Shown here piece after piece: positions 12,268-20,379 of a DNA stretch of 64,000 bases. The first letter of the stretch is position 1, and each line of letters opens with the position of its first letter. The position numbers were made by a program, and so were the translations under genes. The notes beneath the pieces are model-generated. The model saw only the letters and a list, made by a program, of their open reading frames with translations. It searched no databases and was not told the origin of the DNA. The DNA is from Escherichia phage anhysbys: sequence record NC_052656.1. One strand, given 5' to 3'.

Positions 12268-12465
12268 ATGGCAACATTGCACATAGTAGCGAAAGCAGGA
12301 CAAATCAGCGTCGTGGTAAACGGTTTTACTGAGTTCAGTCATCCCCAGGATGATCATGAAACGGTTTTATCTTTCATTGATTCCCTGTTAGAAATGGGAG
12401 TCATTACAGAAGACCAGCACGCTACAAAGTGCAAGCGCGTTAATCAAATTGCAGGGATAGAATAA
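12268..12465 (+). CDS. hypothetical protein
   Basis: ORF track 65 aa; GGAG RBS; first gene of plus array. Confidence 0.5.
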   Translation: MATLHIVAKAGQISVVVNGFTEFSHPQDDHETVLSFIDSLLEMGVITEDQHATKCKRVNQIAGIE

Positions 12466-12471
12466 AAAGTA

Positions 12472-12530
12472 TTGACAACAAACAACAACCTGATAAGATG
12501 TATCACATAGGGCGGGAAGTGGTTTCCCGC
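12472..12530 (+). promoter_or_regulatory. promoter + 5' stem-loop cassette (PeSL-like)
   Basis: TTGACA, -10 TAAGAT, then GCGGGAA-GTGGT-TTCCCGC hairpin before gene 12556. Confidence 0.6.
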
Positions 12531-12555
12531 TCGTAACAGAAGAGAGATTATCATC

Positions 12556-12828
12556 ATGGCATCATATAGCGCAACAATGATCGTAGCTGGCACAACTGGT
12601 AAACCTATGAGCGGTGGCGGATCTTTCGCTAATATCAACATTGACGGGCGTTTATCCCTGGACGCAGCGATCACCGTGGCGCGGGAAACATTTAAGAAAG
12701 AATGTAAATTCAATAAACAAGATTATCTCGGTTTCGCTATTGAAAAAACCGCGCGTTTTGTTGATTATAAAAGCCCAAAAATGGTTGATACTACACTAAA
12801 AGCGCAAGATGTAGCGTTTTTGCTTTAA
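12556..12828 (+). CDS. hypothetical protein
   Basis: ORF track 90 aa; preceded by promoter/stem-loop cassette. Confidence 0.6.
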   Translation: MASYSATMIVAGTTGKPMSGGGSFANINIDGRLSLDAAITVARETFKKECKFNKQDYLGFAIEKTARFVDYKSPKMVDTTLKAQDVAFLL

Positions 12829-12831
12829 GGC

Positions 12832-12886
12832 TTGACATTAACGAATAATTTGTTAATATGTTACATAAAGCGGGAATAGTTCCCGC
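12832..12886 (+). promoter_or_regulatory. promoter + 5' stem-loop cassette
   Basis: TTGACA, TTAATAT, GCGGGAA-TAG-TTCCCGC. Confidence 0.6.
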
Positions 12887-12904
12887 TATTTGTAAGGTGG
12901 TAGA

Positions 12905-13162
12905 ATGTTTTACATCAAATTAAAAGGTCACGTGATCGCGTTCAAAGATAACGCTTTTTACAGATTAGCAAAATATGCGTTAATACATCCCCACTATGTT
13001 TATATAAGGGGGCGTGATGAAATAAATATCTTTGATCAAACAACATGCGAGAACATCGAGATCCGCAAGGTTGGCGTACGTGATTATCGTACATCTTTCT
13101 ACCCTTGCAAGGATTCAGCAAGTCTTTTTAAAGTATGCCAATTGTTGAAAAAAGGTGGTTAA
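12905..13162 (+). CDS. hypothetical protein
   Basis: ORF track 85 aa; cassette upstream. Confidence 0.55.
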   Translation: MFYIKLKGHVIAFKDNAFYRLAKYALIHPHYVYIRGRDEINIFDQTTCENIEIRKVGVRDYRTSFYPCKDSASLFKVCQLLKKGG

Positions 13163-13721
13163 TATGGGCCGCGAATATGTGATCCAGTCTTGGGTAAAAC
13201 ATGAAGCAGATGATCCGCGCATCGTTCCCGATCATCTTATCGATGAATCCACGGGATATAGCGGTGAGCAAATAGGTAACAGATTAGCACGTAGTAACGG
13301 CAACGTAAAAGCGCGTTATGTGCGCCCTGGTTGGCTGGCAAATGGTAACGCTGATTTATCCAGTGCGGAAGATGCGAGCGACGGCGCGAAAGATAATCCT
13401 TTGTACAAAATTGATCCGGCTTTTCGTGTCCTGGATGAATACCCCAGCAAGATAGCGGCGCTTGATGAAGCTCTGGAAAGTAAGCGCATCACCTGGACCG
13501 CTTACAACATGGCAAAAAACGTACTTGATGGTAAATTGATTCAAGCCGAAAGAAAATTAGCCAAAATTGCAGCCATAGCCCAGGAGGAAGACGAGGAGAC
13601 AACGGAAGAGGAAGAGTACGAAGAGATCCCGCCGTTGTTGTGTGTTGATGCTTTTCCTGATTATCAGCCGACAGAGGAAGAAAAAAGGATCGCACTAGAA
13701 AACTTTGAAAATAGTCTTTGA
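13155..13721 (+). CDS. hypothetical protein with acidic C-terminus
   Basis: ORF track 188 aa. Confidence 0.6.
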   Translation: MVNMGREYVIQSWVKHEADDPRIVPDHLIDESTGYSGEQIGNRLARSNGNVKARYVRPGWLANGNADLSSAEDASDGAKDNPLYKIDPAFRVLDEYPSKIAALDEALESKRITWTAYNMAKNVLDGKLIQAERKLAKIAAIAQEEDEETTEEEEYEEIPPLLCVDAFPDYQPTEEEKRIALENFENSL

Positions 13722-13775
13722 CATATCGCCGCCACTGGCATAATATTTACCACGTAGGGCGGCAATGGTGCCGCT
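13718..13775 (+). promoter_or_regulatory. promoter + 5' stem-loop cassette
   Basis: TTGACA, CATAAT, GGCGGCA-ATGG-TGCCGC. Confidence 0.6.
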
Positions 13776-13783
13776 CATAGTGA

Positions 13784-13879
13784 AATTATGCAAGAGGTTT
13801 ACAATGATTAATAAAGAAAATAGCTTGACGGTTGGAACGATTAACGCTATCATTTTCGCCGTTCCATTTTGGGTTGTAG
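13784..13879 (+). CDS. tiny hydrophobic protein (~31 aa)
   Basis: Own translation MINKENSLTVGTINAIIFAVPFWVVVAAIIF; sits between two cassettes. Confidence 0.4.
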
Positions 13880-13887
13880 TAGCGGCT

Positions 13888-13949
13888 ATTATTTTCTAAA
13901 AAATATTCTTGACAACGTTTTTTAATCTGATAAGATGTATCACATAGGG
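13888..13949 (+). promoter_or_regulatory. promoter + 5' stem-loop cassette
   Basis: TTGACA, TAAGAT, GGCGGCGGAA-TAC-TTCCCCGCC. Confidence 0.6.
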
Positions 13950-13989
13950 CGGCGGAATACTTCCCCGCCAAAACAAAAAGGGTAACACA

Positions 13990-14352
13990 ATGAGCAAGCA
14001 AATTAATACTATCATGTTTAATCTGGTATCTTTCCGCGACGATATGAAAAATTTACCACGTGAAACGGTTGATATTCATGTTTCAGCTTATCGCGCCCTT
14101 ATTGACATGTTACCGCTAAAACGTGATCAATATGCCGCTAACACGATGCTTAATGCTATGCTTAAAAAGATGATTCAAACGGATCTCACCCTAGCGTATG
14201 AGTATCAAGGGCGCTTATATGCAACTTATAACAAGGCGGTACCTGGTCTGGGAAGTACCGAAGAGTTGCACGGCTTAAACCTGGATCAAAACACTTGGGA
14301 TAGTATGCGCCGCGTTATGGTATGGGCCGAAAGCGGTAAAATTTACGAATAA
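13990..14352 (+). CDS. hypothetical protein
   Basis: ORF track 120 aa; cassette upstream. Confidence 0.6.
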   Translation: MSKQINTIMFNLVSFRDDMKNLPRETVDIHVSAYRALIDMLPLKRDQYAANTMLNAMLKKMIQTDLTLAYEYQGRLYATYNKAVPGLGSTEELHGLNLDQNTWDSMRRVMVWAESGKIYE

Positions 14353-14358
14353 AAACGG

Positions 14359-14417
14359 TTGACACTGTTTAAACTTCTGGTATAGTTTACCACATAGGGC
14401 GGGAAGTGGTTTCCCGC
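14359..14417 (+). promoter_or_regulatory. promoter + 5' stem-loop cassette
   Basis: TTGACA, TATAGT, GCGGGAA-GTGGT-TTCCCGC. Confidence 0.6.
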
Positions 14418-14440
14418 CAACAATGAAAAAGGTTATCATC

Positions 14441-14806
14441 ATGGCTATTAATATTAATGTTTCCGCTTATGCTACCCTGGCTGCCACGGCTAAAATTGAA
14501 TTGTCCAGCATTGAGGCGGTGCACATTAGCGCCCGTCGCTGGTTTCAACAGTCTTACGGTAACACATATTTTTCTTTAATGGTTGACGTTGAGATCGGCG
14601 GTAAACTGATCGAGGTGGTTAACGTTCCGTTTCAATATGGCTATGGTGATCATTTTGATACCGTCGCCCTGGAAGAATTTAGCAAGGTTATTAATATGGA
14701 AGGTAAAGAGTTTTCACGCGGCGCGTATCTTTCCCGTTTTTGCCGTGACAATGGGATCACTGTATACAGTCATGCGAGCGATGTTAAACGTAAAAAAGAT
14801 TTATAA
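14441..14806 (+). CDS. hypothetical protein
   Basis: Track frame 14423-14806; start refined to MAININ (pattern ..ATCATCATGGC shared with other array genes). Confidence 0.6.
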   Translation: MAININVSAYATLAATAKIELSSIEAVHISARRWFQQSYGNTYFSLMVDVEIGGKLIEVVNVPFQYGYGDHFDTVALEEFSKVINMEGKEFSRGAYLSRFCRDNGITVYSHASDVKRKKDL

Positions 14807-14813
14807 AAAGCAT

Positions 14814-14872
14814 TGACAGCACGAATAAAAAGAGTAAACTGTATTACATAGAGAGCGGGAACACTTCCCGCC
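14814..14872 (+). promoter_or_regulatory. promoter + 5' stem-loop cassette
   Basis: TTGACA, TAAACT, GCGGGAA-CAC-TTCCCGC. Confidence 0.6.
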
Positions 14873-14895
14873 TCACTGAAAAAGAGAGAAAAATC

Positions 14896-15135
14896 ATGGC
14901 TAAATCTAAAATGTACAACGGTCACAAAAACAAAACTCATTGGAATGTAAACCTTTGGATTAATAACGATGAATCGTTATACCGGTTGGCCCAAGATTTT
15001 ATTAACGCTAATGCTAATCGTAATGATGCGGCGCGGGATATGATGCTTTTTCTGGAACAAACTGGACAAGATAAAACGCCAGACGGTTTCAAATATAGCA
15101 CTACTGCGATCCGTGCCGCGATGGTTGGAATGTAA
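14896..15135 (+). CDS. hypothetical protein
   Basis: ORF track 79 aa; cassette upstream. Confidence 0.6.
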   Translation: MAKSKMYNGHKNKTHWNVNLWINNDESLYRLAQDFINANANRNDAARDMMLFLEQTGQDKTPDGFKYSTTAIRAAMVGM

Positions 15136-15144
15136 TAAAAACAG

Positions 15145-15203
15145 TTGACAACGTTTAAAATTAGTGTAAGATGTATCACATAGGGCGGGAAGTGGTTTCC
15201 CGC
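15145..15203 (+). promoter_or_regulatory. promoter + 5' stem-loop cassette
   Basis: TTGACA, TAAGAT, GCGGGAA-GTGGT-TTCCCGC (same as 12472 copy). Confidence 0.6.
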
Positions 15204-15225
15204 CAAAACAGAGAGATTAAAGATT

Positions 15226-15453
15226 ATGGCTATCAATATTGTTCGCGTATCTGGCACCGTTGGCACTTCCCAGGTCATTGCCGTTGTAACAAACAAAAAG
15301 ATTAATGATGTATGTGAGATCTTGAATAAGTGGGCTGTTGCTAATTTTGGGGAATATGCAAGCGTTGAGTACATCGAATCCTACCAGGTGCCAACCATCA
15401 GCCTAACCGATCTCAACGTTGATCGCCTGTTATGCCTGGACGAATTAATCTGA
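15226..15453 (+). CDS. hypothetical protein
   Basis: ORF track 75 aa; cassette upstream. Confidence 0.6.
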   Translation: MAINIVRVSGTVGTSQVIAVVTNKKINDVCEILNKWAVANFGEYASVEYIESYQVPTISLTDLNVDRLLCLDELI

Positions 15454-15462
15454 AAAAGATTG

Positions 15463-15519
15463 TTGACACCGGAAAGAAAAAGAGTAAACTGTATTACGTA
15501 GGGCGGCAATGGTGCCGCT
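15463..15519 (+). promoter_or_regulatory. promoter + 5' stem-loop cassette
   Basis: TTGACA, TAAACT, GGCGGCA-ATGG-TGCCGC. Confidence 0.6.
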
Positions 15520-15543
15520 CACAACAGAAGAGAGATTATTACG

Positions 15544-15759
15544 ATGGCCAATATCCGCACACTGTTAAAAAATGCAAGTCAAGTTTTATTTTCAGATGAC
15601 GAGTATTTCAATAAAGACATTACAGGCGTAAAAAATCTTAAAGATGTAAAGGATGTGATAGGTATTCGCGGATCTTTACGTAAAGGTGACTACTACGGCA
15701 ATAAAGTACAATATAAATTAAATCAGTCTTATGATTTTACTTTGACAATTATTTCATAA
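15544..15759 (+). CDS. hypothetical protein
   Basis: ORF track 71 aa; cassette upstream. Confidence 0.55.
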   Translation: MANIRTLLKNASQVLFSDDEYFNKDITGVKNLKDVKDVIGIRGSLRKGDYYGNKVQYKLNQSYDFTLTIIS

Positions 15760-15764
15760 AACCG

Positions 15765-15827
15765 CTTGCAATCTTAATAAAATAAAGTAAACTGTATTAC
15801 ATCAAGGCGGCGGAATGGTCCACCGCC
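15765..15827 (+). promoter_or_regulatory. promoter + 5' stem-loop cassette
   Basis: CTTGCA, TAAACT, GGCGGCGGA-ATGG-TCCACCGCC. Confidence 0.55.
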
Positions 15828-15851
15828 TAACAAAGAGAAGAGGAAAACACC

Positions 15852-16019
15852 ATGATCACTTTCGCTACCCGTGAAGCCGCTCGCAACGTTGCCCGTAAAG
15901 TTAACGCCGCCAACCTGGGCGCTACGTTTAAAGCACCTGTAAAAGATGAATCAGGAAAATGGATCTTCCCTGGTCTGCGTCACGCTGATAAGCTAGGCAC
16001 TTTAAGCCTTAAAAAATAA
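15852..16019 (+). CDS. small hypothetical protein (~55 aa)
   Basis: Own translation MITFATREAARNVARKVNAANLG...; cassette upstream; shares 5' leader and first codons with 16094 gene. Confidence 0.45.
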   Translation: MITFATREAARNVARKVNAANLGATFKAPVKDESGKWIFPGLRHADKLGTLSLKK

Positions 16020-16022
16020 TCG

Positions 16023-16059
16023 TTGACTTTTCGTTATAGCGCCTTATAATGGGCGCTAT
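16023..16059 (+). promoter_or_regulatory. near-consensus sigma70 promoter with -10 inside a palindrome
   Basis: TTGACT-16-TATAAT; inverted repeat ATAGCGCC-TTATAATG-GGCGCTAT encloses -10. Confidence 0.6.
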
Positions 16060-16093
16060 AGAGAAGAGAAACCACTACTGACAAGGAAACACC

Positions 16094-16315
16094 ATGATCA
16101 CTTTCGCTATTGTCGCCGTTGTTGCTGGTCAAGTTTACGTAAACGATACATTCACCACAGAAGACAAGGCCGCAGGAGATATAACCGCCGTTTACAACGA
16201 GTGCAAGGCAGTAGAAAGGATGTTAGCGCCTTGTATGTTAATGAGTGAACGCCAGGACGGGATAACAGTGTTTACTAACATTGAGACAGGGTACCAAATG
16301 GTAGTAACAAAATAA
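16094..16315 (+). CDS. hypothetical protein
   Basis: ORF track 73 aa; TTGACT-16-TATAAT promoter upstream. Confidence 0.55.
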   Translation: MITFAIVAVVAGQVYVNDTFTTEDKAAGDITAVYNECKAVERMLAPCMLMSERQDGITVFTNIETGYQMVVTK

Positions 16316-16318
16316 AGC

Positions 16319-16375
16319 TTGACACGGATTTAATTTTCAGTAAACTGTTACACGTAGGGCGGGAATAGTTCCCGC
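16319..16375 (+). promoter_or_regulatory. promoter + 5' stem-loop cassette
   Basis: TTGACA, TAAACT, GCGGGAA-TAG-TTCCCGC. Confidence 0.6.
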
Positions 16376-16393
16376 TAAAAAGAGAGAAAAACC

Positions 16394-16747
16394 ATGAAAG
16401 CACAAAATGCAATTAAAGAGTACATCCTTGCCGCTATCGATTTTAATGATTACGGTATTACAACCGAAAAAGAGAAGATCGCGGAATTGATGCGCCGTTT
16501 TAATTCCGAGTACTGGTACCCTGATAACCAATCACGTTTTAATTATAGTATTGTTAAAGCACTTGCATCATGGTTACAAGGTTTGCCATCAGATATTAAT
16601 ATCGCTTTCGAATATTGGGAAATTGATCGCTTGTTAACATCCTGGGGATACATTAAAGAGAATAGCAGCGATGATAAAATCCAACGAGAAAGGGAAAATT
16701 ATTGGCTTTATATTGCAGGCGTGATCCTTGCTTGCTCTTATGAATGA
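16394..16747 (+). CDS. hypothetical protein
   Basis: ORF track 117 aa; cassette upstream. Confidence 0.6.
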   Translation: MKAQNAIKEYILAAIDFNDYGITTEKEKIAELMRRFNSEYWYPDNQSRFNYSIVKALASWLQGLPSDINIAFEYWEIDRLLTSWGYIKENSSDDKIQRERENYWLYIAGVILACSYE

Positions 16748-16753
16748 TAAACC

Positions 16754-16807
16754 TTGACAATTTTACAAAACAGTTTAAATTAATAATATAGCGGCAATGG
16801 TGCCGCT
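16754..16807 (+). promoter_or_regulatory. promoter + 5' stem-loop cassette
   Basis: TTGACA, TAATAA/AATATA, GCGGCA-ATGG-TGCCGC. Confidence 0.55.
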
Positions 16808-16826
16808 CATATAAAGAGGAAACAAA

Positions 16827-16973
16827 ATGAATACATCTAATCGCGCAGAAAAAATCCAATCTTCCAAGATCCGCAAGGCCTGGAACGAGGAAGTGATCCG
16901 CAAAGGCGACAAGCGCAATAAAACAAAGCGCGGGAAGAGTGACAAATATAATTGGATGGATTTAGAGGATTAA
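16827..16973 (+). CDS. small basic protein (~48 aa)
   Basis: Own translation MNTSNRAEKIQSSKIRKAWNEEVIRKGDKRNKTKRGK...; cassette upstream, terminator downstream. Confidence 0.45.
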   Translation: MNTSNRAEKIQSSKIRKAWNEEVIRKGDKRNKTKRGKSDKYNWMDLED

Positions 16974-16979
16974 CATAAC

Positions 16980-17007
16980 AAGGGCGCACCAAGCGCCCTT
17001 TCTTTTT
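16980..17007 (+). terminator. rho-independent terminator
   Basis: AAGGGCGC-ACCA-AGCGCCCTT + TCTTTTT. Confidence 0.7.
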
Positions 17008-17028
17008 ACATGTAGAGGATAAACAAAG

Positions 17029-17214
17029 ATGACTTTAAGCGAGCTTAAAACAGCCTACAACGCAACGTTAAAAATAGCCGTGCGTTACCGTGATGCGTAC
17101 GGTTTTATCGCGCAGGGCGTGATCCTGGGCTTTTCTGACGATGGTTTGATCTATGTTGATGCACATTATAACAAGGTAAAACCTGAAAACGTCATTAGCA
17201 TAAAATATCTTTAA
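17029..17214 (+). CDS. hypothetical protein
   Basis: ORF track 61 aa. Confidence 0.5.
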   Translation: MTLSELKTAYNATLKIAVRYRDAYGFIAQGVILGFSDDGLIYVDAHYNKVKPENVISIKYL

Positions 17215-17220
17215 AAGTGG

Positions 17221-17280
17221 TTGACACCATAACCGGACCTGTTAAACTGTATTACATCAGGCGGGGAATAGTTCCCCACC
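17221..17280 (+). promoter_or_regulatory. promoter + 5' stem-loop cassette
   Basis: TTGACA, TAAACT, GCGGGGAA-TAG-TTCCCCAC. Confidence 0.6.
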
Positions 17281-17299
17281 ATACAAAAAGGTAAATATT

Positions 17300-17506
17300 A
17301 TGATCACCGCAAAACAAGAGAAAATCATTATCGACGTTGCAGCCGTTGCCGCTATTGCTATTATTGGATCTTATTATGATACCCGTTTCCCGTCGGCTAT
17401 GCATGAGATCGCCGCCGTTGCATCAGTTGGCGTACTGTTTTACGTTGGTAAACGCTATTTATCACCAATGATTAACAAGCTGACACCGTGGAAAAATAAA
17501 GGTTGA
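17300..17506 (+). CDS. small membrane protein
   Basis: ORF track 68 aa; hydrophobic IIIDVAAVAAIAIIGSYY / AAVASVGVLFYVG. Confidence 0.55.
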   Translation: MITAKQEKIIIDVAAVAAIAIIGSYYDTRFPSAMHEIAAVASVGVLFYVGKRYLSPMINKLTPWKNKG

Positions 17507-17557
17507 TCCTGTTTTATATTGTGTTATAGTTATCGTGTAGGGCGGCAATGGTGCCGC
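17503..17557 (+). promoter_or_regulatory. promoter + 5' stem-loop cassette
   Basis: TTGATC, TATAGT, GGCGGCA-ATGG-TGCCGC. Confidence 0.55.
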
Positions 17558-17577
17558 GCCCCTTTGAGGATGCAATC

Positions 17578-17862
17578 ATGAGTAAAGCTAACACCGTGCT
17601 AATGTTTTCCCTGATTAATGATCCCGCTTACTTGTCCAACATGACGCAGGAGGGTAACACATTAACGGCAACATTCACCAATAAGCTTGACCGGGTGATC
17701 ATCATCTCACTGAAAACAGTTAGTAAAGGCTTTTACTCGTTAGCTTATCATTGGATCACCGATACCGATGAGACAAGCCAGGACTATAGCGCCCCTTTCC
17801 CTGAATCAATGGCACGGGAGATCATCGCCGCCGTTGTAAATGATGGTTTGTTTACTGCATAA
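17578..17862 (+). CDS. hypothetical protein
   Basis: Track frame; start refined to MSKANTVLMF downstream of cassette. Confidence 0.6.
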   Translation: MSKANTVLMFSLINDPAYLSNMTQEGNTLTATFTNKLDRVIIISLKTVSKGFYSLAYHWITDTDETSQDYSAPFPESMAREIIAAVVNDGLFTA

Positions 17863-17880
17863 AATAATTTAGAAAAAGGC

Positions 17881-17937
17881 TTGCAATCATTTTGAGATAG
17901 TGTATATTTAATTCATAGGGCGGCGGGAATAGTTCCC
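17881..17937 (+). promoter_or_regulatory. promoter + 5' stem-loop cassette
   Basis: TTGCAA, TATATT, GGGAA-TAG-TTCCC. Confidence 0.55.
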
Positions 17938-17960
17938 AAAGCAAACGAGAGGATTACACG

Positions 17961-18080
17961 ATGAGCAAGTACACAGTAGAATACACGGTAGAAAATCCGG
18001 CAGTATCCGAAGGTAAAAAGATGACATTTGCCATCAGTATAATCGCTTTCGTTGTCACTATCTTATCAATCATCTTATAA
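17961..18080 (+). CDS. tiny membrane protein (~39 aa)
   Basis: Own translation MSKYTVEYTVENPAVSEGKKMTFAISIIAFVVTILSIIL; cassette upstream. Confidence 0.4.
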   Translation: MSKYTVEYTVENPAVSEGKKMTFAISIIAFVVTILSIIL

Positions 18081-18090
18081 GGTGCACACC

Positions 18091-18252
18091 ATGAAAACAA
18101 CAGATATTATCAAAGAGATCGCCCATGCCGCTGGCGTTGAGATCGAGGAAGTGATCGCGCTCAATCTTACAGAAAACGATCTGCGCAACTATGAAGCGGA
18201 AAGCGTGAAAGCAAGCGGCGCGGTCCTGGTATATGATCCGGCTAACAAGTAA
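18091..18252 (+). CDS. hypothetical protein
   Basis: Track frame 18052-18252; start refined to MKTTDIIKE after AAGGTG. Confidence 0.5.
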   Translation: MKTTDIIKEIAHAAGVEIEEVIALNLTENDLRNYEAESVKASGAVLVYDPANK

Positions 18253-18261
18253 GGGGATAAC

Positions 18262-18372
18262 ATGAATCCGAAAGATATGCAAGCATGGAAAGGGTACGAC
18301 GATCTAAGCGCCTTGCGCAATAAGTCAAGCCGTAACCTTAGACGGTTGGAAGCAAAGAAAAAGAAAAAATAG
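18262..18372 (+). CDS. tiny basic protein (~36 aa)
   Basis: Own translation MNPKDMQAWKGYDDLSALRNKSSRNLRRLEAKKKKK; AAGGGGA RBS. Confidence 0.35.
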   Translation: MNPKDMQAWKGYDDLSALRNKSSRNLRRLEAKKKKK

Positions 18373-18373
18373 T

Positions 18374-18430
18374 TTGACAAGTCCGCCTAGTCTGATAATA
18401 TGTATCTTGTAGGGCGGCAATGGTGCCGCT
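18374..18430 (+). promoter_or_regulatory. promoter + 5' stem-loop cassette
   Basis: TTGACA, TAATAT, GGCGGCA-ATGG-TGCCGC. Confidence 0.6.
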
Positions 18431-18450
18431 CACAAGAAGAGAGAAAAATC

Positions 18451-18735
18451 ATGAAAATCACAAAAAGCCTAACTAATTATGCAGCACGTCGCGGATTATG
18501 TTTAACCGTTGAAAACTTAGGGAAAGAAGACTTTTTGTGTTTTTGGGAGCTTGAAAATGATTGCGAGTGGATGTTTTCTTATTCTATCTGCGAAGATCAA
18601 AACGGTTGTTTGTTAACCTGGCGCGGTAATATCTATTTACCGGAAGAAATTAAAGAAGAGTTACCAGGTACGATCATGACAGAGAGACAGCTTAAGGAAA
18701 TGATTAATTTTGTAGGGCAAAACATTAAAAAATAA
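18451..18735 (+). CDS. hypothetical protein
   Basis: Track frame; start refined to MKITKSL downstream of cassette. Confidence 0.6.
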   Translation: MKITKSLTNYAARRGLCLTVENLGKEDFLCFWELENDCEWMFSYSICEDQNGCLLTWRGNIYLPEEIKEELPGTIMTERQLKEMINFVGQNIKK

Positions 18736-18736
18736 T

Positions 18737-18797
18737 TTGACAGCACGCAAACAACGTAGTAAAGTTTACCACATAGGGCGGCGGAATGGTCCACCGC
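18737..18797 (+). promoter_or_regulatory. promoter + 5' stem-loop cassette
   Basis: TTGACA, TAAAGT, GGCGGCGGA-ATGG-TCCACCGC. Confidence 0.55.
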
Positions 18798-18820
18798 TCA
18801 CAACAGAAGAGAAACAAATC

Positions 18821-18991
18821 ATGATCCCGACTATGTTTTATGTATCGCGCAAAGGTCACAATATTTTTTGGTCTGAAGATTTAAATGAAGCTATGACGTT
18901 TGCCCGTGATCGTGTTGCTATCGGTGGCGTTAACATCACCGTAACCGATGAAAATGGCATTGAATACTATAACGGCGACGATGAAGAATAA
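18821..18991 (+). CDS. hypothetical protein
   Basis: Track frame; start refined to MIPTMFYVSRKG downstream of cassette. Confidence 0.5.
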   Translation: MIPTMFYVSRKGHNIFWSEDLNEAMTFARDRVAIGGVNITVTDENGIEYYNGDDEE

Positions 18992-19038
18992 TTAATGAGG
19001 CGGGGGAGTATTCCCCGCCGTCAATAAAGAGGTAAATC

Positions 19039-19308
19039 ATGAAAATATCATTGGACGTTGCAATCAAGGCCATCGAATCCGGTTACATCCTGGTAAAAGA
19101 TGATAAGGCTAAAATAGTGCATCATGTTAACAAGGAAACAGGCGAAAGCATGATCACATATAAAGCCGCCTACTTTCTCCAATCAGTAGCAGATCCGCGC
19201 GTACAACGCCAGGTTATGGCGGCTATTGCTAAAAAATTATGTGCTTTACAGGGTACAAGTTTTAACGAGATCGCCCCGTGTTTTGAGTGGTCAAGCTTGA
19301 AAAAATAA
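19039..19308 (+). CDS. hypothetical protein
   Basis: ORF track 89 aa; GC hairpin upstream. Confidence 0.55.
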   Translation: MKISLDVAIKAIESGYILVKDDKAKIVHHVNKETGESMITYKAAYFLQSVADPRVQRQVMAAIAKKLCALQGTSFNEIAPCFEWSSLKK

Positions 19309-19309
19309 T

Positions 19310-19370
19310 TTGACAACAATTATAAATCGGGTAGAATGTATTTCGTAGGGCGGGGCAATAAAGCAACGCC
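19310..19370 (+). promoter_or_regulatory. promoter + degenerate 5' stem-loop cassette
   Basis: TTGACA-16-TAGAAT; GGGCG...CGCCC weaker stem. Confidence 0.5.
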
Positions 19371-19389
19371 CATTAATGAGGGTAGAATC

Positions 19390-19494
19390 ATGTTAGAGAA
19401 AATTTTCACGGTTGTAATAGTGGGCCTGGCGTTATCGGTTGGAGTGGTTGCAACTATGGCTAACATGATCCTATCTTCCCACGGTATCGGTTAA
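19390..19494 (+). CDS. tiny membrane protein (~34 aa)
   Basis: Own translation MLEKIFTVVIVGLALSVGVVATMANMILSSHGIG; cassette upstream. Confidence 0.35.
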   Translation: MLEKIFTVVIVGLALSVGVVATMANMILSSHGIG

Positions 19495-19504
19495 GGTGAA
19501 ACAA

Positions 19505-19720
19505 ATGATCACGAACAAAACAGGCAAAACGGAATTTTTACGCGGCTTACAAGTTGGTAAGCCTGAGATCTGGCATTGCACGAAGTCCGCGCATAATGAA
19601 ATGAAAGATTTTACCGCTACTTTACAACGTGTTAAAATATCTATCACACAGAAAAAAGCCTTGTTAGTAGTAGAAAACGAGATCCCGCAAACTATTATTA
19701 TTGTCGAGCGTACAGCATGA
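19505..19720 (+). CDS. hypothetical protein
   Basis: Track frame 19496-19720 (GTG) ; ATG at 19505 preferred. Confidence 0.5.
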   Translation: MITNKTGKTEFLRGLQVGKPEIWHCTKSAHNEMKDFTATLQRVKISITQKKALLVVENEIPQTIIIVERTA

Positions 19721-20103
19721 AAACAGAAATCATTATTGAAATCATCAACGGCTATAAAGAAGCCTTTATTTTTGCTGAATCAGCAAGGGATCATGAAGGT
19801 AATTTTATTGATAACTTAGACGATTATGATTTTTCTCCTAGCGCGGATCAACGGATCGCACAGGATGTAACAGCCTTTATTAATGCTAATCTTGCCGCTA
19901 TCTCTGAGGCAATGAGCGACGGCGCAACAGCCAACCAGATCGGGAATGATTTACATTTTACCCGTAACGGTCACGGCGTAGGCTTTTGGGATCGCCCTGA
20001 AATATACACCACTAACACGGCGAACCGCCTAACCAATGCAGCTAAGTTTATGCCGAACGTGTCGGCTTACGTTGGTGAAGATAATTTTATTTATATTGAA
20101 TAA
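19717..20103 (+). CDS. hypothetical protein
   Basis: ORF track 128 aa; ATGA overlap. Confidence 0.6.
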   Translation: MKTEIIIEIINGYKEAFIFAESARDHEGNFIDNLDDYDFSPSADQRIAQDVTAFINANLAAISEAMSDGATANQIGNDLHFTRNGHGVGFWDRPEIYTTNTANRLTNAAKFMPNVSAYVGEDNFIYIE

Positions 20104-20109
20104 AAAGTA

Positions 20110-20166
20110 TTGACACAGATCGCCAGTGTGCTAATATTTACCACGTAGGGCGGCAATGGTGCCGCT
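20110..20166 (+). promoter_or_regulatory. promoter + 5' stem-loop cassette
   Basis: TTGACA-16-TAATAT, GGCGGCA-ATGG-TGCCGC. Confidence 0.6.
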
Positions 20167-20187
20167 CCCCGAAAAAGGTAAAACATT

Positions 20188-20379
20188 ATGAAAACTATCA
20201 GCTACCTGGAATCGAATAACATGTTTTTTGCGCCCGTTGATGAAATCATCGAAGCATTAAACAACGAGGAAGGGATCAATGGTTTATCTTATAGCCAGCT
20301 TTTAGGAATGGTTGCAGCAAATGAGGAGCTTGCTTACTATGTTGAAAATTTTGATGAAGCTGTAATCTTTACAAAATAA
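20188..20379 (+). CDS. hypothetical acidic protein
   Basis: ORF track 63 aa; cassette upstream. Confidence 0.55.
   Translation: MKTISYLESNNMFFAPVDEIIEALNNEEGINGLSYSQLLGMVAANEELAYYVENFDEAVIFTK

Follow-up and report, generated by a model that had tools for sequence, protein, structure and literature searches.

Why do two adjacent genes encoding unrelated proteins begin with the same nucleotides? This question is raised by a locus of Escherichia phage anhysbys (NC_052656.1), of which a stretch of 64 kb is hereafter referred to as the window. Two neighboring small early genes of the window, designated g1 and g2, share a leader and their first five codons (MITFA). A sequence-only reading of the window had interpreted this duplication as the footprint of a cassette recombination that copied a regulatory module and a gene start onto a different open reading frame (ORF).

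Positions 15400-16800 of the window correspond to phAPEC8-like coliphages (genus Phapecoctavirus, subfamily Stephanstirmvirinae); the identity is 98% with vB_EcoM_DE16 and about 95% with phAPEC8 itself. The matching records annotate every gene of this region as hypothetical. The locus is a run of small plus-strand ORFs, with a promoter-like cassette ahead of each, and contains the following features.

15766-15793, plus strand: g1 promoter, read by eye, with -35 TTGCAA (15766-15771), a 16-nucleotide (nt) spacer, and -10 TAAACT (15788-15793)
15805-15828, plus strand: stem-loop in the 5' leader of g1, AGGCGGCGG AATGGT CCACCGCCT, predicted by RNA folding
15845-15867, plus strand: repeat copy 1, comprising the spacer AAACACC between the Shine-Dalgarno (SD) sequence and the ATG, the ATG, and g1 codons 2-5 plus 1 nt
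15852-16019, plus strand: g1, 55 amino acids (aa) (MITFATREAARNVARK...; MITFATREAARN...), phrog_13689
16023-16050, plus strand: g2 promoter, TTGACT-16-TATAAT, matching 11 of 12 consensus positions in a promoter scan
16027-16068, plus strand: palindrome or hairpin enclosing the g2 -10 hexamer, a PeSL-like composite identified as an inverted repeat and by RNA folding
16087-16109, plus strand: repeat copy 2, comprising the SD-ATG spacer AAACACC, the ATG, and g2 codons 2-5 plus 1 nt
16094-16315, plus strand: g2, 73 aa (MITFAIVAVVAG...), phrog_25390
15868-16109, plus strand: 242-bp unit absent from phage iGC_PHA_EC001, comprising the g1 body, the g2 promoter and hairpin, and one repeat copy

Two unrelated genes share a 23-nt start

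The starts of g1 and g2 contain a perfect direct repeat of 23 nt, AAACACCATGATCACTTTCGCTA, at positions 15845-15867 and 16087-16109 (242 nt from start to start). The repeat, slightly longer than the leader and MITFA codons first reported, consists of the 7-nt SD-ATG spacer, the ATG, and 13 coding bases that complete MITFA and include the first base of codon 6. With up to three mismatches allowed, a third copy was found on neither strand of the window, and none of 100 shuffles yielded two matches to the repeat. To place this length among other gene starts, 162 putative starts were called in the window and compared pairwise with the start codon as the anchor (approximately 13,000 pairs). After the 23 nt of g1 and g2, the longest stretch of identity was 15 nt, all of it upstream from the start codon; on the coding side, the best run elsewhere was 9 nt versus 13. 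In the window, the motif AAACAYC directly precedes the ATG at the g1 and g2 starts only, and the probability that four codons are identical, given the same peptide, is about 0.02 with the codon usage of the window. The shared start is thus an identity at the nucleotide level. The shuffles and the anchored all-versus-all comparison rule out chance or the context of ribosome binding sites (RBS) and start codons as its source, the eventuality that the sequence-only reading had itself reserved.

The proteins diverge past MITFA, as had been noticed from the sequence. BLASTP did not align g1 with g2 at E ≤ 100, blastn-short and tblastx in all frames found only the 23-nt block, and the two genes belong to separate PHROGs (13689 and 25390). 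Together, these comparisons exclude a partial gene duplication or a hidden homology between g1 and g2.

The locus was extracted from 19 Phapecoctavirus genomes or contigs carrying both genes. The 23-nt blocks of g1 and g2 differed by 0 to 4 mismatches in all 19, and the repeat was perfect in four of them (the window, ESCO13, BI-EHEC, and Ec-G1), indicating that the shared start is an inherited, genus-wide feature. The g1 homologue of BI-EHEC (L021, approximately 490-660) aligned in a shifted frame with only 79% identity, and its locus is 3 nt longer than that of its relatives; a frameshift or a sequencing error is possible. The record is devoid of annotation in this region.

A deletion between the two copies in phage iGC_PHA_EC001

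A crossover between the two copies would remove a 242-bp unit, comprising the body of g1 and g2's own promoter, and leave a single copy of the repeat. Following this deletion, g2 would be placed under the control of the g1 promoter and leader, and the g2 protein would be unchanged. A query was built from this predicted junction (...GGAAAACACCATGATCACTTTCGCTATTGTC...), which joins the g1 promoter, the leader, and the shared block to the body of g2, and was searched against the phage collection.

The query matched 88 phage records, including one deletion recombinant. Escherichia phage iGC_PHA_EC001 (OR437326.1, 125301-125503) matched all 203 nt in a single piece with 97.5% identity. All other listed records containing both halves of the query matched in two pieces, separated by about 445, 623, or 740 nt. 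In the alignment of iGC_PHA_EC001, the g1 promoter, hairpin, SD sequence, and spacer (in the g1 variant AAAATATC) are followed by ATGATCACTTTCGCTA, which leads directly into g2 (TTGTCGCC... / TTGTCGCCGTTG...). Searching the whole genome of this phage with g1 by tblastn gave no hit below E = 1, the palindromic g2 promoter was absent from the entire genome, and the 16-mer used in our surveys occurred exactly once. One copy of the repeat was kept, the missing segment equals the spacing of the repeats (242 bp), and the flanks are collinear. As read from its assembled sequence, iGC_PHA_EC001 bears the signature of a deletion between direct repeats, of the predicted 242 bp. These results show that the pair of direct repeats can be acted upon by homologous recombination, by single-strand annealing, or by slippage during replication.

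The reciprocal junction, made of the g2 leader and the g1 body, gave no single-piece match in the best 60 of 125 matching records. The record of iGC_PHA_EC001 carries annotations for a putative 'recombination-associated exonuclease' and a putative DprA-like protein.

Gene cassettes enter and leave the g1-g2 interval

The arrangement of the window, g1-palindrome-g2, was found in approximately 60% of the genomes. In about one third, a 72-aa gene, X, is located between the palindromic promoter and g2 (g1-palindrome-X-g2), and in a few genomes a 53-aa gene, Y, occupies the same slot (g1-hairpin-Y-g2). Phage DIJ07P1 may belong to the latter type, to judge from the spacing of its two matches to the junction query alone. 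The sequence-only reading had called for a survey of related genomes for either arrangement alone. Gene g1 occurs alone in phi92-like phages (Justusliebigvirus), with the same ATGATCACTTTCGCTACC start and directly followed by the homologue of the next gene of the window. Two Logan contigs from other phages, and Cronobacter phage CR9, a Certrevirus of the Vequintavirinae, have the palindrome and g2 without g1 nearby.

Gene X (phrog_27558; L002, ECO340P1, 1199-1417) displays about 90% protein identity to gp161 of phage rV5 (L039, 701-919); the rV5-like Vequintavirus phages belong to another subfamily. The homology between rV5 and ECO340P1 runs from the RBS leader of X through X and its downstream spacer up to ...AAAGAGGAAACATC followed by ATGA. 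It ends at the start codon of whatever gene comes next, gp160 in the case of rV5 and g2 in that of ECO340P1. From this alignment, X resembles a mobile cassette of one gene, bounded by translation-initiation regions.

In the outgroups, the inserts of the slot bring a second palindromic promoter, generating a palindrome-gene-palindrome structure. By analogy, such arrangements are consistent with an exchange of the type described for the PeSL cassettes of RB49, phi1, and other T4-type phages (Arbiol et al., 2010, PMC2839356; Comeau et al., 2014, PMC4122927). Together, these comparisons show that the g1-g2 interval is a hot spot of cassette recombination, with initiation regions as the borders at which X, Y, and other cassettes come and go.

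Across lineages, the slot contains at least four different small genes: X, the 53-aa Y (MTNKEKAII...), and two others of 81 and 50 aa. The sites of slot occupants are as follows.

L004 (a contig from IMG/VR), 2326-2487
L053
L045, 1734-1895
L015, 1312-1557
L031, 1779-1931

Each start and each promoter is native to its gene

To determine which gene owned the shared start, the g1 and g2 families were compared within Phapecoctavirus and in outgroups (FBKp34, Tr1, Logan and JGI contigs, and CR9); 10 outgroup g2 genes were included. In 13 members of the g2 family, down to 58% identity, residues M1, T3, F4, A5, and I6 are invariant and I2 is present in at least 90%; two members from Klebsiella phages begin with MV. 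In genomes devoid of g1, g2 begins with ATGATCACTTTCGCAATT (CR9 and L032) or ATGATTACTTTTGCAATT (L034). The g2 family therefore has MITFAI as its own native N-terminus, also where g1 is lacking. In an AlphaFold (AF2) model of g2 (pLDDT of 79.5), residues 3-10 form the first β-strand of a small α/β fold, a prediction that accounts for the conserved N-terminus. The model had no significant match in the PDB and matched uncharacterized viral proteins only.

In the g1 family, conservation sets in at T6-R7, and the first five residues vary, the N-termini being MITFA, MITFT, MITMN, MIAMT, MKFA, MKFT, MKLA, or MNTFK. The N-terminus of g1 is thus evolutionarily loose. Every piece of the g1 start is nevertheless native in some relative of g1, as exemplified by gagaaacatc followed by ATGATC (L045 and L046), ATGATCACA (FBKp34), TTCGCTACCCGTGAAGCCGCT (L044), and TTCGCTACCCGT. 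The structure model of g1 was of low confidence (pLDDT of 65). Neither gene had a Pfam hit, and their PHROG matches were restricted to families of unknown function.

Elements orthologous to the g1 promoter (TTGACAA...GTAAACTGT) are present upstream from g1 in FBKp34, Tr1, and L031. More generally, the outgroups have orthologues of both sets of elements, the promoter and hairpin ahead of g1 and the palindromic promoter with its leader ahead of g2, in each case upstream from the same gene. No regulatory module was copied, because both promoters have such same-gene counterparts.

The two starts were probably homogenized by a short exchange

If both starts are native, what has to be accounted for is that they are identical. 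In FBKp34, which has both genes, the starts are unalike at the nucleotide level (aaaatt followed by ATGATCACAATGAAT versus gataaa followed by ATGGTTACATTTGCA), and the same is true of the Klebsiella-phage relatives harboring both genes. The AAACAYC spacer was found in none of the 10 outgroup g2 genes, and the codon for Ala5 was GCA or GCG in all 10. Every Phapecoctavirus g2, in contrast to these outgroup genes, has the AAACAYC spacer and GCT, matching g1. At five sites (-4, -2, -1, +6, and +12), the same C/T alleles are polymorphic in both copies. What is derived in the lineage of the window is therefore the nucleotide identity only (spacer and synonymous codons).

These features would be accounted for by an ectopic exchange between the neighboring starts, with a gene-conversion tract of approximately 20-30 nt, in the ancestor of Phapecoctavirus and Justusliebigvirus. 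The two starts would already have been similar before the exchange, which would have rendered them identical in nucleotides. In g2, the exchange may have introduced the GCT codon together with a spacer of the g1 or cassette type (AAACATC), and the g1 copy would bear the ATC-ACT-TTC codons typical of g2. We infer that the starts were homogenized in the ancestor of this clade of E. coli phages, through the ectopic exchange of a short tract, although this event can be neither dated nor oriented with certainty. The whole interpretation (native promoters, inherited near-identical starts homogenized by exchange, and a repeat that is now a recombination substrate) is in our view probable, if far from certain.

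Several observations weigh against this interpretation. The junction of iGC_PHA_EC001 is read from an assembled record, and may have originated in assembly or in laboratory passage; this phage is the single deletion recombinant among the 88 records matching the junction. No more recombinants were found in the IMG/VR or JGI metagenomes, which held only three relevant contigs. This negative result is uninformative because these three were the only true Phapecoctavirus g2 contigs present there; a survey of IMG/VR by protein and by 16-mer detected almost no relatives, and among the 16-mer hits, L007 (the same contig as L004) and L009 carry a g1-type start.

In a permutation test, within-genome concerted evolution inside the genus was not significant, with a mean of 1.63 mismatches within genomes versus 1.87 between genomes (p = 0.16). 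The C variant at position -2 is present in both copies in the window and in BI-EHEC, but at g2 and not at g1 in contig L051, so that -2 C at g2 is not linked to its counterpart at g1. On the basis of this mismatch and of the permutation test, continuing concerted evolution in the genus was dropped as an explanation. The shared polymorphisms, which are all C/T transitions at weakly constrained sites, could result from parallel mutation. In addition, AGGAAA(A)CATCATG also occurs ahead of other genes in this phage group, and the spacer is therefore less special group-wide than within the window. Finally, each piece of the block is native in some relative of each gene, which makes parallel descent combined with chance possible.

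Contig L051 (OBRO01000001.1) is a near-complete Phapecoctavirus metagenome contig of 150,704 bp. Its g2 leader variant is that of the window (ctactgacaaggaaacacc), and its g1 start encodes MITFT behind the spacer ACATC.

Other explanations for the shared start

According to the sequence-only reading, a single cassette-recombination event copied the regulatory module and start of one gene (leader and MITFA) to a foreign ORF and left the repeat behind as its scar. We consider this unlikely, although the nucleotide identity does lie far beyond chance and a transfer of this type is demonstrable at this very site in iGC_PHA_EC001. Moreover, the complete string ATC-ACT-TTC-GCT was found in no sampled relative of g1 outside the Phapecoctavirus/Justusliebigvirus clade, whereas relatives of g2 have ATGATCACTTTCGC; g1 could therefore have taken its first codons from g2. 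A copied module is difficult to reconcile with an identity that ends after 23 nt on both sides, and with promoters, hairpins, and SD contexts that differ between the two genes, each being orthologous to the elements of the same gene in distant relatives. A copied start, for its part, has to contend with MITFAI being native to g2 where g1 is lacking, and with TTCGCTACCCGT, ATGATCACA, and gaaacatc followed by ATGATC being native in relatives of g1. The idea of a cassette-recombination footprint is thus retained in part: the homology is true, the interval is a hot spot, and a module transfer is seen in iGC_PHA_EC001, but the window itself holds no copied regulatory module. The duplicate of the window is better read as a homogenized pre-existing similarity serving as a recombination substrate than as the scar of a single copying event.

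The two starts could also have converged in the absence of any exchange, through similar N-termini (M-I/V-T-F-A versus M-I-T/A-F/M-x) and a common initiation variant. Every piece of the block is indeed native in relatives of each gene. AGGAAA(A)CATCATG also stands before several unrelated genes of related phages (gp160 and gp162 of rV5 among them), and the test for within-genome concerted evolution was not significant. We nonetheless regard coincidence combined with common constraints as improbable. The g1-g2 pair is an outlier among the 13,000 start pairs, both in total length and in its coding part, and the low probability of identical codons has to be multiplied by that of a 7-nt spacer unique to these two starts in the window. 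Furthermore, the spacer and GCT were found in none of the 10 outgroup g2 genes, and the starts are unalike in the Klebsiella-phage relatives having both genes.

A bolder proposal, which we put forward as a speculation with little chance of being correct, is that start-codon regions (SD-ATG spacer and first codons) are selected portable 'in-frame joints' in rV5-, phi92-, and phAPEC8-like phages, used for swapping promoters and ORFan bodies with both proteins left intact. If this were true, shuffling of the PeSL type would extend from non-coding cassettes into coding sequence, and the repeat would be maintained in order to toggle between g1 with g2 on its own promoter and g2 alone on the g1 promoter. 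A variant, in which the shared initiation region is targeted by a common post-transcriptional regulator, is less likely.

Very improbable, finally, is a functional constraint by which a common post-transcriptional regulator (a translational repressor, a small RNA, or a nuclease) or an initiation optimum keeps the block identical: the block is conserved in both genes genus-wide, both initiation regions are predicted by RNA folding to be unstructured, and the same initiation motif recurs on other early genes of the group, but the window contains no complementary (antisense) or third copy, the block tolerates synonymous and spacer polymorphisms as well as A5T in g1, relatives of both genes work with quite different starts, and no regulator was identified.

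Promoters and stem-loops of the two genes

The two promoters differ, as the sequence-only reading had stated. That of g2 (TTGACT-16-TATAAT) lies within a palindrome, whereas that of g1 (TTGCAA-16-TAAACT) is followed by a stem-loop, matches the consensus at 8 of 12 positions, and falls below the threshold of the promoter scan. Sister cassettes of the form TTGACA-16-TAAACT, at 15463 and 16319, were listed by the scan. RNA folding assigned -15.8 kcal/mol (z = -2.5) to the g1 hairpin (15805-15828), which is located just downstream from the -10 hexamer. The -10 hexamer of g2 is in the loop of a strong palindrome (16027-16068; -26.3 kcal/mol, z = -5.65). The SD sequences, GAGG for g1 (15840-15843) and AAGG for g2 (16083-16086), are located 7-8 nt upstream from the ATGs.

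The contrast drawn earlier between a PeSL-type promoter for g1 and a palindromic promoter for g2 was a mislabel. In PeSL elements, the stem-loop is most commonly located between the promoter boxes or overlaps the -10 box, and the element ends with an SD sequence and a start codon (PMC2839356). The palindromic promoter of g2 is therefore at least as much of the PeSL type as that of g1, and both elements are PeSL-like.

Cassettes of the g1 type, consisting of a promoter followed by a GGGCGG...CCGCC hairpin, number at least 12 in the interval from 12.4 to 20.1 kb, whereas the strong palindromic promoter of g2 occurs only once in the window. Within positions 12400-20200, the 12 or more cassettes are near-identical (TTGACA-16-TAAnnT and GGGCGG...CCGCC) and stand ahead of nearly all small ORFs. 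The cassettes starting at 13718, 15463, 18374, and 20110 contain the hairpin GGGCGGCAATGGTGCCGCTC as an exact repeat. As to a role of the PeSL-like stem-loop as a terminator or attenuator, no U-tract follows the hairpin, and the terminator scan does not list it.

The hairpin at the -10 hexamer of g2 was compared between the window (16027-16068) and its orthologues in L014, L015, L031, L032, L034, L044, L045, L028, and L029. The structure is kept while the sequence changes, with compensatory double changes in 10 of 19 pairs (10 lineages). Phage phiWec188 (L028) and the IMG/VR contig L004 have lost both promoter hexamers (-35 and -10) and retained the hairpin. The hairpin seems to have a separate role, perhaps as an attenuator, a processing site, or a stabilizer of an RNA 3' end, since its structure is conserved and is retained where the promoter hexamers are lost.

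Other features of the locus were as follows. An additional ORF encoding a cysteine-rich protein of 52 aa (MKTCQCGKKS...) is present just upstream from g1 in PNJ1809-36 (L003, 872-1030) and phiWec181 (L030, 243-401). This ORF displaces the -35 part of the g1 promoter, and g1 may therefore be co-transcribed with it. Several records give the label 'phosphoribosylpyrophosphate synthetase' to the 71-aa gene located upstream from g1 in the window (15544-15759; homologues ukendt_65, JR325_gp038, and others). This annotation looks wrong: Pfam gave no hit for the gene, and its PHROG is one of unknown function. In Citrobacter phage Tr1 (L016, 1408-1845), the coding sequence following g1 is annotated from inside the promoter palindrome (ATGGGCGCTATAG...), and this annotation also looks wrong.

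Relation to known recombination systems

The locus resembles the PeSL systems in its hyperplastic early region of small ORFans, each located behind a composite sigma70-like promoter and a stem-loop, and in elements that end in an SD sequence and a start codon, the stem-loop of g2 overlapping the -10 hexamer. As in these systems, short common sequences at gene borders appear to drive the deletion, insertion, and replacement of single-gene cassettes, and many dispersed copies of the cassette exist (at least 12 of the GGGCGG-hairpin type). The locus differs in that the phage belongs to the Stephanstirmvirinae and is not a T4-type (Tevenvirinae-like) myovirus. The recombining block consists of the SD-ATG spacer and five codons, reaching into two unrelated coding sequences, and the single proven recombinant used the start-codon repeat rather than promoter elements. 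Finally, the two flanking promoters are not of the same cassette type.

Deletion between short direct repeats belongs to the classical genetics of the lytic phages T4 and T7. The recombinant described here conforms to this scheme, with one copy retained, the exact 242-bp interval gone, and collinear flanks. It departs from it in that the outcome is an in-frame promoter swap that preserves function, not the destruction of a gene.

Conserved gene-boundary sequences are a feature of lambdoid phages. Exchange at short imperfect matches on gene borders and mosaic neighborhoods, of which gene X provides an example, recall homeologous recombination. Such relaxed recombination contributes to phage mosaicism and has been studied with lambda Red (Martinsohn et al., 2008, PMC2327257) and Rad52-like recombinases (De Paepe et al., 2014, PMC3945230); unlike the present case, these studies concern temperate phages with defined recombinases.

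Ectopic gene conversion and concerted evolution offer a further parallel, since the two tracts share derived states that are absent from outgroup orthologues, as well as polymorphisms. In contrast to the conversion of paralogues, the tract spans approximately 23 nt between non-homologous genes, and ongoing concerted evolution was not detected.

In the papers searched, we found no description of this locus or of PeSL-like cassettes for phAPEC8- or phi92-like phages, and the genome paper of rV5 reports sigma70-type promoters only. What is new relative to the known systems is the phage group, the extension of the homology five codons into unrelated genes, and a product that preserves the protein.

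Significance for the phage group

The window and iGC_PHA_EC001 form a clean natural pair, showing the before and after of a step that in phage evolution is mostly known by inference. Recombination over a 23-nt homology spanning start codons led to the loss of one ORFan and the re-wiring of its neighbor's promoter, with the neighbor's protein unchanged. For annotators and phage engineers, instability is to be expected at such repeats. In comparisons of therapeutic Phapecoctavirus phages, the presence or absence of g1, X, and Y reflects a recombination-prone state and is not a lineage marker. In the rV5/phi92/phAPEC8 group, the borders of mobile single-gene cassettes lie in translation-initiation regions.

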